From the IMG/VR virus record IMGVR_UViG_2531839474_000009: DNA of 52,953 nucleotides; one strand, 5' to 3'. A program made the position numbers. This document shows, piece by piece, positions 1 to 3,000 of the stretch (position 1 is the stretch's first letter; each line of letters opens with the position of its first letter). Origin of the DNA: a virus. Taxonomy: Duplodnaviria; Heunggongvirae; Uroviricota; Caudoviricetes.

Positions 1-3000
1 ATGTGGGTCAATAAGTATATTGACGATTGCACTGATGAGGATTTAAACGATCGTGACTTTATTGCATCAGTTGTTGACCGGGCTATTTTTCATTTCGCGA
101 TTAATAGTATATGTAATCCTGGGGATAATAAAGATGCAATGCCCATTGAACAATGTACTTTTGATGTAGAAACTAAGAATGACCTTCCCTCCACGGTTCA
201 GCTATTTTATGAGGAATCTAAGGATAATGAACCTTTAGCGAATATACATTTTCAAGCAATAGGTTCTGGTTTTTTAACGTTTGTTAATGCCTGCCAGGAA
301 CATGATGACAACAGCTTAAAATTATTTGCTTCGCTGTTAATTTCACTTTCATATTCTAGTGCCTACGCAGATTTATCAGAAACAGTGTATATTAATGAAA
401 ATAATGAGAGCTACCTGAAAGCTCAGTTTGAAAAATTATCTCAACGTGATATGAAGAAGTACCTGGGAGAGATGAAGCGTCTGGCTGATGGGGGAGAAAT
501 GAATTTTGATGGCTATCTGGATAAGATGTCACATCTGGTGAATGAAGGAACGCTCGATCCTGATATTTTAAGCAAAATGCGAGATGCTGCACCACAATTA
601 ATTAGCTTCGCGAGGTCGTTTGACCCAACCTCAAAGGAAGAGATTAAAATACTTACAGACACTTCTAAATTAATTTATGATTTGTTCGGGGTTAAATCGG
701 AGAAATAATATGTGAAGTTCTTCGATAGTATGGAAGGCATTATATAAAAGGACCCAATATTTATTGGGTTCTTTTTTCTCTATCAATGCTATTAGCAGGG
801 AGATATATCACCAGAGTTTAATGTGTGATTTTTTATTTATCGTCGAACCTGGATTGTTTATCATTGGCCTTAACAAAGTTAACGGCTAATAAGATTATTT
901 CCATCACTTCGTGAGAGCTTCATGCCTTGAGAGGATCTCAATTTTCTTTTGCAATGAGACAGGCGCTTCCTGTTGTTATGGTATAGTACCCCGCTATTGA
1001 GCCTCCTGAATAGTGATGCTGAATAACATAACCCCATGATATATCGATAAAATAATCTCTACATTTGAAAATGCACGGTAATTCTGAAATGCAAAAAATC
1101 AACCAAACCAGCGCAATGCCTGAAAAAACTGACGTTCACTGGAGTGGTCGGTTTAGCGTTGCACCAATGCTCGATAGGATGTATCGTTTTTGAAAAACAA
1201 GTAGTTATACACTTTGTGGGAGCCTATTGGGAACCCGGTGTTTTCATTTCAAGGTGTAATCCATGCCGGGCATCAGAATGAGATATAATGAGATTTTTAG
1301 TGTTCCGCTTGAGAGTCTATGATGCTTACCCTAGACGAGATAGGTCAATCTGTACGTAACAATATCCAGTTGATTATTGATCATGTCGGCTTACCTCTTG
1401 CTGTTGGTCCGCTCAGTGATGATGATTACAAGATTCTGTGTGGTGGCTATGGTGAGCTTGAATGGGACTATGCGTTAAGCACCTATGGCAACTCCAGAGA
1501 AAAGTATGAGTTCTGCATAAAACTTGTTCAGCAAGGTCGGGTTCAGGGAATACCATCAGGAGCAGCAATTTGTGTTTATGGGGTTGAAGAAAACATCTTT
1601 CATATCCATATGATCGAAAGGTTTTCTAGAGAAGATGAATCTCACCCATTGAAAGGGCGCATGGTTTTACTCACTCTTATGAGTGCTTTTATATTTTGTA
1701 AAGCTGTTGAATGTAAAGTTGTCCACATTGTAGAGCCAGTACCAGAACTGGTGCAGTATTACGAGTCTTTTGGTTTCCGCATGGAACAGTGCGGTTATGT
1801 GATGTCTGCAGTCATTGATGAGCTGCAGGATATCTTTCTTAAATTTGCTCAGTAGGTATAGACGAGAAGGGGCTACAAATTGTAGGATACCCGTCCAGAT
1901 TACCTTAAAGGTACATCTATGGCAGTCGTTTTGTGCTTAAACTACTAAGAAACGATGTCACCAATCGACATGATCGATTGGCATAAGTTAGCGAAACAAG
2001 CTAGCTTTAAAGAGAGGGTTAGAGACGCCTTTACTGTCTCGGGAGTTTTCTATGAAAGATCAAAAAGCAACCAAGCCACAGGTTAAGTTCGACACAATGA
2101 AAGCATTCGCAGGTATGGGTGCTGCTGTTGAAGTTCTGATGAAGGCTGCTCCTAATGCGTTCACTCACGCTACTGTCTCTGGTAAAGAGCAGCAGGGTAA
2201 GCTTCGTCGTCGCAAAGCAGCATGATCATAGCTGGTGCTTTTTGAAAACCCGCCTTTAGGCGGGTTTTTTCTTTAGTGATGTTCTTTGCCCTTCTGTTTG
2301 CTTGTTCTGACCTGTTCCCACTCGATACGTCCTTCTTCTCGTCTTTTGTCTATGTATTCCGCAAGATCCTGAATATTGATGCAACGTTTTGCTTTTTGTG
2401 ATGTGCCGATGCGATATGTTGGAACGGGCAACTTACAAGCGTTTGCTTTTGCTTCTGCCGTGGCTGGACTCATGCCAAAGTACTTTTGGCTAACTGCTGA
2501 GAGTTCAATGTTAGGGGTATTGAATTCAGCCATCAGTAAAAACAAGGTGTTCATAATTTTCTCCATCAAAACCGGCTGCACCCGGGAAAATCATAATTCT
2601 GTGCTGGTGGCAGGAATTAGTTTCTGCCAGATAGCGGAAACATATTTTGCCTGATGACGGGCATCAGCCAGGGCGTTGTGCCGTTCGCCATCGAAAGGCA
2701 TGTCCATTTTGGGGTCGAATCCGATGGAACGCCCAAGCGTAACGATCGTGCGTACATCGTGGTCATTCCAGTACGCCCACGGGCAGATTTGTCCTGCTCG
2801 CTCGTAAGCTCCACGTAAAATTACGTTGTCGAAGGTGGCCCCGTTACCCCAGACTTTTAAATATTTTGTATTGTCTGCATGCTGATTAATGAAATGGCTC
2901 AGTTCAGAGAGTGCATCGCTGATCGACAAAGTATCATCAATACAGATTGCAGCTCGTGCTTCAGAGCTCTGTTTCAACCACCACAGGATGGTATCGCCGT

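Follow-up and report, generated by a model that had tools for sequence, protein, structure and literature searches.

Here, we examined the left end of a lambdoid prophage carried by a 52,953-nt stretch of DNA (IMG/VR record IMGVR_UViG_2531839474_000009; hereafter, the window), which consists of Escherichia coli chromosome, with a DUF2713 gene and then dusA, and the inserted prophage. Between the attachment site attL and the excisionase gene xis lie two small open reading frames (ORFs), ORF178 and ORF57, named after the lengths of their products and separated by a spacer. Our analysis revealed that the gene pair, the RNA structure between the two genes and the terminator that follows them are conserved and move together between two prophage slots. 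Judging from sequence comparison, the interval appears to be a unit of two genes, with a structured RNA between them, that is conserved, mobile and bracketed, and it fits the definition of a moron. Both genes were already annotated, as hypotheticals; what is new is the assignment of a GNAT fold to the product of ORF178, the finding that the pairing is obligate, the RNA structure read as a leader of ORF57, and the pattern of two slots and two alternative cargoes.

Conservation and mobility of the gene pair

Among the viral loci fetched by homology to the GNAT protein, ORF57 lies downstream of the GNAT gene in all 80; counting every locus, the pairing holds in 97 of 97, and these comprise 31 distinct spacers. 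Phage Eeyore (L018, PP925821.1) keeps the pair at 42% identity for the GNAT protein and 38% for ORF57; its 53-aa ORF57 homologue, downstream of the GNAT gene at 4298-4459, is unannotated, and the overlapping short ORFs that the record gives instead (4225-4326 and 4380-4496) look spurious. All five remote GNAT homologues that we examined have a small adjoining ORF (52-81 aa), basic in four of the five cases; one of these partners lies upstream rather than downstream of the GNAT gene, that of locus L114 begins at an inferred internal start that yields 59 aa within a called ORF of 124 aa, and the spacers in remote family members measure only 10-110 nt. One remote pair is located among PemK and CcdA genes. 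Locus L118 holds tandem GNAT-family paralogues (1145-1831, 228 aa, and 2001-2558, 185 aa), with a 55-aa basic ORF 10 nt downstream.

The unit occupies two positions in prophage genomes. In E. coli and Salmonella, the pair is found at the dusA attL slot, and in Hafnia, Franconibacter and Enterobacter it lies between the genes for the antiterminator Q and the holin, with a terminator before it and its own terminator after it. Besides att/xis, this is the other classical moron slot. The terminator hairpin AAAACCCGCC-N4-GGCGGGTTTTTT is also present 3′ of ORF57 in the late-region copies, where there is no xis. In Hafnia prophages (L003-L006, around 3150-4109), a RelA/SpoT-domain protein is encoded directly upstream of the GNAT-ORF57 pair, between Q and holin, and matches the PADLOC candidate defence family PDC-S33 (E = 1e-112).

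In a set of 5,426 complete genomes of E. coli, 562 carry ORF57, 358 the GNAT gene and 208 a Panacea pair, so that the ORF57 carriers split almost exactly into two types (562 being about 358 + 208). The E. coli carriers include O157:H7 and O111 strains; outside E. coli, the cargo was found in Salmonella, Enterobacter, Cronobacter and Hafnia. The association is one-sided: no GNAT locus was seen without a small partner ORF, whereas ORF57 does occur without the GNAT gene.

In the second type, represented by phages SKA5 and Lys8385Vzw and by strains such as H10407, the GNAT gene and the leader are replaced by a Panacea-type pair, namely, a protein with a Panacea (SocA-like antitoxin) domain, PF13274, and a second ORF (139 aa with a 4-nt overlap in the phage records; 128 aa according to the Prokaryotic Genome Annotation Pipeline, PGAP). 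Homology of these prophages to the window sets in again 10-13 nt upstream of the start of ORF57. SKA5, Lys8385Vzw and H10407 thus show the presence/absence pattern expected of a moron, with other cargo in the same slot, and, given that the Panacea pair fills the place of the GNAT unit, an interchangeable class of cargo is suggested. In enterotoxigenic E. coli H10407 (L099), a gene annotated as 'competence protein CoiA' (3323-4357) lies between ORF57 and xis, which shows that the slot turns over further; similarity of H10407 to the window ends before the shared terminator.

The GNAT-fold protein

ORF178 is present where it had been described, and the accompanying label, a protein of unknown function, proved incomplete. 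The product matches phrog_4350 (E = 5e-103, residues 2-178 on profile positions 1-178), a family of unknown function, and has no match in Pfam or NCBIfam at E <= 1 and none in PADLOC. Ten remote homologues recovered from a search of 1.84 billion proteins likewise gave no Pfam match and no bridge to GNAT families; the whole family is small, with 94 clusters (50% identity) matching among the 1.84 billion representatives. By contrast with these sequence searches, an AlphaFold model based on an alignment of 34 homologues is confident (predicted local distance difference test, pLDDT, 93.2; predicted template-modelling score, pTM, 0.89), and the best 50 matches of this model in a Foldseek comparison with the PDB are all GNAT acetyltransferases, among them TacT3, AtaT and KacT, with no single subfamily standing out. 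By its predicted structure, then, ORF178 is a GNAT-fold, acetyltransferase-like protein. Armadillo-repeat matches obtained with phmmer and with the family profile against PDB sequences were rejected as spurious; the profile found no GNAT.

Invariant throughout the family are E100 in strand β4, the motif HPLxGxM just before helix α3, and Y148 in YYxSFGF. In ORF178, the motif reads HPLKGRM (109-115; H109, P110, L111, G113 and M115 invariant) and precedes the helix at 115-129. The invariant E100 and Y148 are compatible with acyl-CoA-dependent catalysis (CoA, coenzyme A). The protein is acidic, with an isoelectric point (pI) of 4.8 and a net charge of -11; the pI ranges from 4.3 to 5.5 within the family.

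The small basic protein

Conservation of the reading frame identifies ORF57 as a real gene. A frame that is not conserved in related prophages would have counted against the preliminary description, but the opposite was observed: in 25 of 25 distinct nucleotide versions the 57 codons are intact, and the median ratio of nonsynonymous to synonymous divergence (dN/dS), about 2 for the two shifted frames, is 0.11 for that of ORF57. The ORF lies where it had been described, with its Shine-Dalgarno site as a strong ribosome-binding site, and GGAG or GAGG stands at the equivalent position in all spacers. It had also been said to be easily missed, but both PGAP (WP_000654815.1) and the record of phage mEp460 (gp24) annotate it, phage Eeyore being the case in which annotation is lacking. 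ORF57 matches phrog_2741 over its full length (E = 8e-36, 1-57 on 1-57), and its homologues, found in at least 7 genera (Escherichia, Salmonella, Enterobacter, Atlantibacter, Franconibacter, Cronobacter and Hafnia), share the invariant core KFDT.KAF.GMGAAVE.LMKAAP. The AlphaFold2 model consists of a single helix (residues 15-32) with disordered basic tails, at a confidence too low for a fold search (pLDDT 63). The pI is 10.5, within a family range of 9.6-10.8. Nearly all homologues, the remote ones included, end in ...AA, a C-terminus which we take to resemble ssrA-type C-terminal degrons and which may be a degron itself.

The codon adaptation index of ORF57 is 0.56, compared with 0.17-0.37 in 12 other genes, and exceeds that of all 3,000 random 57-codon windows; these values, based on the E. 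coli weights of Sharp and Li, are approximate in absolute terms, whereas the ranking should be robust. From this codon usage, ORF57 is probably highly expressed. Synonymous divergence between alleles is low in ORF57 (dS 0.08-0.5) relative to the GNAT gene (dS from 1.3 to saturated). Strong selection on codons, recombination or the two together would agree with this difference, and a constraint at the RNA level is a further candidate.

The structured spacer

The two genes are separated by a sequence that folds as a chain of hairpins, here denoted H0 to H5, with a minimum free energy of -57.9 kcal/mol (z = -3.2). The chain is alike in 14 diverged spacers of 142-197 nt, in each of which the sequence of H2 is different, and RNAalifold applied to 17 spacers recovered H1, H3 and H4. 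Hairpin H3 is the palindrome CAATCGA-CATGA-TCGATTG noted earlier at 1962-1980, which is present and one pair longer than described, forming a perfect 8-5-8 repeat. Taken alone, this palindrome is not significant; perfect inverted repeats with 8-nt arms number 17 in the window and 4.9 ± 2.4 in shuffled sequences. It is conservation in related loci, not arm length alone, that argues for its reality.

Indeed, with the structure of H3, H4 and H5 drawn by hand on a plain MAFFT alignment, 88.4% of the cells are paired, against 21-45% when the partners are slid, and 23 cells are changed on both sides, a number reached by 0 of 500 shuffles. A covariance model was built from that alignment, and re-alignment to the model shifted the register of H5 by one column in four rows relative to MAFFT; in the resulting alignment of 24 distinct sequences, 96.8% of the H3 cells and 100% of the H5 cells are paired, and H4 has five covarying pairs. 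Across both alignments, 88-95% of the cells are paired, compared with 20-46% in the slid controls, and 23-35 are changed on both sides, but these pair statistics are inflated, since the sequences share ancestry and the second alignment was made to fit the model. A search with the covariance model detected exactly one copy of the spacer RNA per enterobacterial GNAT locus and no second copy in the window. It found no copy in Panacea-type loci or in Eeyore, and the match in Hafnia was weak and non-significant (E = 0.75). In the Panacea-type prophages, which retain ORF57, the spacer RNA is lost together with ORF178.

The pattern of substitutions distinguishes the two strands. Changes in H3 are mostly from CG to UG and from AU to GU, with some double changes, and 22 cells are G·U pairs; pairing is kept in 96.8% of the cells on the + strand and in 86.5% on the - strand. 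For the three modelled helices together, 49 G·U cells stand against 8 A·C cells, and 94.7% (+ strand) against 86.3% (- strand) are paired. The 5′ arm of H3 varies (CCAATCG to CTGATTG) and the 3′ arm is constant, with pairing saved through G·U; the loop varies freely, and the GATC in H3 is not conserved. Given the asymmetric arms, the free loop and the unconserved GATC, the palindrome is best read as a + strand RNA stem-loop rather than a symmetric operator.

The last hairpin, H5, extends to the base that immediately precedes the Shine-Dalgarno site of ORF57. A search of the spacer against Rfam 15 gave no family match: at E <= 10, the sole match over the spacer was to Phage_DGR on the - strand, at 17 bits compared with a gathering threshold of 50 (E = 4.7), and the better-scoring matches all fell on the terminator and were all sub-threshold. 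ARAGORN found no tRNA-like gene in the spacer, and an ORF search found no conserved ORF there; a 43-aa ORF across the palindrome (1955-2086) was rejected, as it is not conserved and in some alleles merely extends ORF57 in frame. We also considered whether the spacer, at 193-196 nt, is sRNA-17, a published 193-nt small RNA (sRNA) of E. coli K1 RS218 that is ArcA-modulated and reported to lie in an mEp460-like prophage (PMC7719688). This identity is rejected: sRNA-17 maps to about 8085 of the window, where 8085-8105 (+) is an exact match to its start, in the early-left region of the prophage and outside the cargo interval.

Prophage setting and boundaries of the unit

The cargo region is 96% identical to that of phage mEp460, in which the gene order is int (-), attP, gp23 (177 aa), gp24 (57 aa), xis (-). 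The attachment sites attL and attR form a 112-nt repeat (1068-1179 and 51537-51648, 81% identical). Sequence to the left of the crossover core ATGCTCGA is host and sequence to the right is phage, so that phage DNA starts at about 1175, and the earlier placement of a left-end cargo immediately inside attL is borne out, an accessory region at this position being supported. The dusA′ stub at attL consists of 29 native codons, 5 phage-encoded codons and a stop and reads toward the cargo genes; between dusA′ and ORF178 (1193-1319), no terminator is predicted. At attR, an intact hybrid dusA (51537-52577, +; 345 aa) has its first ~110 nt supplied by the phage, and this 5′ end is only 81% identical to the native one left at attL. 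Hybrid dusA genes with an element-supplied 5′ end have been reported for elements with dusA-specific integrases (Farrugia et al. 2015, PMC4482086). On the other side, xis is a backbone gene and forms the right border of the cargo slot.

Of 36 distinct regions upstream of the GNAT gene, 34 have a hexamer that matches TATAAT in at least 5 of 6 positions, located 34-41 nt before the ATG; both genomic contexts show it. A generic promoter scan missed this -10-like hexamer because there is no -35 element; comparison of the upstream regions revealed it. About 30 nt further upstream is a conserved T-rich motif (ACAYNTTTTTAC/CA-like; GGTGTTTTCATTTCAAGG in the window, ~1237-1254), which recurs at equivalent positions in L012, L015, L086, L089, L092 and L097 and is too far from the hexamer to be a -35 element. 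At the other end of the unit, the terminator stands between ORF57 and the convergent xis, 4 nt from the end of the latter (2273). It had been called bidirectional, and this holds for the + strand, with its hairpin and T-run; on the - strand the stem is followed by just 4 U and was not called by the scan, so that, with xis ending at 2273, bidirectionality is plausible and only half shown. The features of the unit and its borders are collected in Table 1.

Table 1. Position of the two-gene unit, its RNA structures and its borders in the window
Feature	Coordinates	Strand	Remarks
Truncated host dusA′ at attL	1089-1193	+	PGAP: partial tRNA-dihydrouridine synthase
attL crossover core ATGCTCGA	1167-1174	none	three-way alignment of attL, attR and mEp460 attP
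Candidate -10-like hexamer TATAAT	1284-1289	+	candidate module promoter; positional conservation
ORF178	1319-1855	+	178 aa; PGAP start at 1322 (177 aa); phrog_4350; mEp460 gp23
ORF178-ORF57 spacer	1856-2051	+	196 nt, non-coding, structured; read as ORF57 leader
Stem-loop H0	1861-1895	+	predicted fold
Stem-loop H1	1897-1918	+	predicted fold
Stem-loop H2	1921-1959	+	predicted fold
Stem-loop H3 (palindrome), CCAATCGA-CATGA-TCGATTGG	1961-1981	+	8-bp stem, 5-nt loop
Stem-loop H4	1985-2007	+	predicted fold
Stem-loop H5	2022-2040	+	predicted fold
Shine-Dalgarno site of ORF57, GGGAG	2041-2045	+	abuts 3′ arm of H5; 6 nt before ATG
ORF57	2052-2225	+	57 aa, Lys/Ala-rich; phrog_2741; mEp460 gp24; ends ...RRRKAA
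Intrinsic terminator	2244-2271	+	11-bp hairpin at 2244-2269, 6 G-C pairs, T-run on + strand
xis, convergent excisionase gene, PrtN family	2273-2581	-	Pfam PF11112, E = 4e-23; phrog_1300 excisionase

Elsewhere in the window, a 1.3-kb insertion sequence with an IS3-type rve transposase (295-aa ORF) is present in three copies that are 100% identical (11999-13309, 32643-33959 and 49400-50709). The third copy truncates the dusA-type integrase gene, of which a remnant is left at 50681-51451; with its integrase interrupted, the prophage is defective and probably locked in. Between the tail-fibre genes and the integrase lies a further large cargo gene, which encodes a 1134-aa DUF4765 protein (45304-48708, -) and has a very low G+C content at third codon positions (0.26) and a very low codon adaptation index (0.17).

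Discussion

We propose that the interval is a self-contained moron. It would have been inserted into a lambdoid phage that is mEp460-like and integrates into dusA, in the gap between attP and xis, and it is laid out as a -10-like element, the GNAT gene, a structured leader, ORF57 and an intrinsic terminator. We hold the anatomical part of this explanation with high confidence; the explanation as a whole, which joins the moron unit to a leader acting in cis and to a partnership between ORF57 and the GNAT protein, is the best that we can offer and seems rather more probable than otherwise, whereas the specific proposal that ORF57 is a partner of the enzyme with a toxin-antitoxin-like function is tentative. 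Transcription would start from the unit's own -10-like promoter, and in a lysogen read-through from the promoter of the interrupted host dusA may add to it. Given that H5 abuts the Shine-Dalgarno site, the leader would act in cis, on the translation of ORF57 or on mRNA stability, and it may be an autoregulatory binding site for the basic ORF57 product.

ORF57 itself would be a physical partner of the GNAT protein, either a neutraliser of the antitoxin kind or a substrate. The unit would then be cargo made of two components, of a toxin-antitoxin-like or defence type, and an analogue of the Panacea-antitoxin pair. Several lines of evidence point to such a dependency: the one-sided occurrence, with a small partner at every GNAT locus seen and ORF57 able to exist without the GNAT gene; the opposite charges, acidic and basic, of the two protein families; the possible C-terminal degron of ORF57; and neighbourhoods rich in toxin-antitoxin and defence genes, together with the interchange with Panacea at the slot. 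A more elaborate version, a three-part system in prophages of Enterobacterales that combines an acidic GNAT effector, an RNA of ~190 nt and an abundant, proteolytically labile basic partner with a toxin-antitoxin-like or anti-phage role, is unlikely at present; the RNA would then set or sense the ratio of partner to enzyme.

Apart from the inflated pair statistics discussed above, a number of observations weigh against the proposed explanation. No -35 element is conserved among the compared upstream regions, so that the promoter is putative. In ORF178, HPLKGRM occupies the place of the CoA pyrophosphate-binding loop, which in motif A of GNAT proteins reads Q/R-x-x-G-x-G/A and lies between β4 and α3, but the sequence is degenerate, with Met for the last G/A. 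An acidic GNAT is not expected of a tRNA-acetylating toxin, and the pI of ORF178 argues against tRNA binding. For ORF57, searches of Pfam, NCBIfam and PADLOC gave no match, and no DNA-binding or antitoxin domain is recognisable; the gene lies 196 nt downstream of the GNAT gene, unlike in known GNAT toxin-antitoxin pairs, and one of the five remote partners (L111) is acidic. Furthermore, ORF57 is more conserved than the enzyme (median dN 0.065 and 0.23, respectively), and typical antitoxins show the opposite pattern. Finally, ORF57 is intact in the 208 Panacea-type E. coli genomes that lack the GNAT gene and may thus work independently, and in the literature we found no study of either protein.

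Alternatively, the two proteins could form an enzyme-substrate or effector pair, a model nearly as good as the toxin-antitoxin-like one, if rather improbable when taken by itself. ORF57 would be an abundant basic effector that binds, for example, ribosomes, nucleic acid or the nucleoid; the GNAT protein would tune it by acetylating its N-terminus or lysines, or would acetylate the host target that ORF57 also acts on; and the leader would provide autogenous translational control, as in ribosomal-protein operons. The genes might also be unrelated neighbours, the GNAT protein being a stand-alone enzyme of lysogenic conversion or anti-defence and ORF57 belonging to the backbone where the slot ends. 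This would account for ORF57 of E. coli standing behind either of two cargoes that are unrelated to each other, homology breaking off 10-13 nt upstream of the ORF57 ATG, and for the discordant dS values of the two genes. Yet other genera also carry the two genes together, a second slot, distant from xis, holds them as well, their association persists at 42%/38% identity, a small ORF adjoins the GNAT gene in 5 of 5 remote homologues examined, and the strong codon bias of ORF57 could explain its low dS, so that we regard mere adjacency as improbable.

The remaining alternatives concern the spacer. It could encode an independent trans-acting sRNA or RNA antitoxin, processed or transcribed from its own promoter, instead of a cis leader. 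The conserved structure spans ~190 nt, far more than the occlusion of a ribosome-binding site requires, and co-occurs strictly with the GNAT gene and not with ORF57; moreover, mEp460-like prophages express at least 1 other sRNA, sRNA-17, from a different locus (PMC7719688). However, no terminator separates the spacer from ORF57, the spacer contains no promoter-like site, H5 abuts the Shine-Dalgarno site, the spacers of remote family members shrink to 10-110 nt, and Rfam gives no match; a trans-acting RNA is hence hard to favour, and we consider it about as improbable as mere adjacency of the genes. Least of all do we favour the palindrome as a duplex DNA operator for a dimeric regulator of prophage or host origin that would control ORF57 or its neighbours, which is close to the reading implied by the preliminary description, of prophage regulators binding there. 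The perfect 8-5-8 repeat, with a GATC Dam site in the window copy, and the outer arms CCAATCG/CGATTGG, conserved at a fixed 7-nt spacing in many loci, are what an operator would offer. But the arms change asymmetrically with pairing kept through G·U, as the H3 counts above demonstrate, the palindrome is one among about six adjoining hairpins, several of which have turned over with full compensation, no promoter-like site adjoins it, and the GATC is not conserved. Furthermore, it is lost with ORF178 where ORF57 is kept without the GNAT gene, and alone it is within chance. A DNA operator is therefore very improbable, and we retain the reading of the spacer as a leader of ORF57.

Comparison with known systems

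The cargo is common in E. coli yet everywhere labelled only 'hypothetical protein', and the analysis provides testable handles on it: a GNAT fold for a family invisible to profiles, a real small protein beside an obligate enzyme, and a conserved RNA absent from Rfam. If the unit is not a toxin-antitoxin-like or defence module, it is an ordinary moron. Like the phage morons of the Juhala/Hendrix concept (PMC3594210), such as lambda lom and bor or stx downstream of Q, it is accessory and absent from close relatives, is bounded by a promoter-like element on one side and a terminator on the other where it lies between backbone modules, and occupies the two classical slots (att/xis; Q-lysis genes). 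It differs in having two genes with a long structured RNA between them. The insertion into the 5′ end of dusA, the replacement of that end and the att-adjoining cargo are shared with the islands and prophages that encode dusA-specific integrases (PMC4482086), the published study of which covers the integration system and not the present cargo.

The leader has counterparts in those of ribosomal-protein operons and in control of the T4 gene 32 and regA type, in that a series of hairpins in the 5′ region runs up to the Shine-Dalgarno site and the downstream gene encodes a small, basic protein with codons of the highly expressed type; the spacer differs from them in having no Rfam match, and binding by the ORF57 product is purely our inference. 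Panacea (PanA/SocA-like) antitoxin-toxin pairs occupy the identical slot, from attL to ORF57, in sister prophages but consist of unrelated proteins, have overlapping genes and lack a structured spacer. Should the toxin-antitoxin-like or defence function be borne out, the dusA attL slot would be an exchange point at which GNAT and Panacea pairs alternate.

A further comparison is with the type II toxin-antitoxin systems that combine a GNAT toxin, which halts growth through acetylation of aminoacyl-tRNA, and a ribbon-helix-helix (RHH) antitoxin, which neutralises it (TacAT, AtaRT, KacAT, ItaRT). As in these systems, a GNAT protein of ~175 aa, structurally matched by TacT3, AtaT and KacT and with an invariant Tyr (YYxSFGF), goes with a small partner on mobile elements, and the GNAT gene was never seen partnerless. 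By contrast, there is no sequence similarity, and even remote ORF178 members have no Pfam match; ORF178 is acidic; ORF57 has no RHH or DUF1778 domain, is predicted to form a single helix and is more conserved than the enzyme; and its gene lies 196 nt downstream, whereas the gene for an RHH antitoxin directly precedes the toxin gene or overlaps it. A toxin-antitoxin-like or defence module of this kind would represent a new architecture among GNAT systems and, if the three-part version held, a new class of GNAT toxin-antitoxin or defence system together with a new RNA family.

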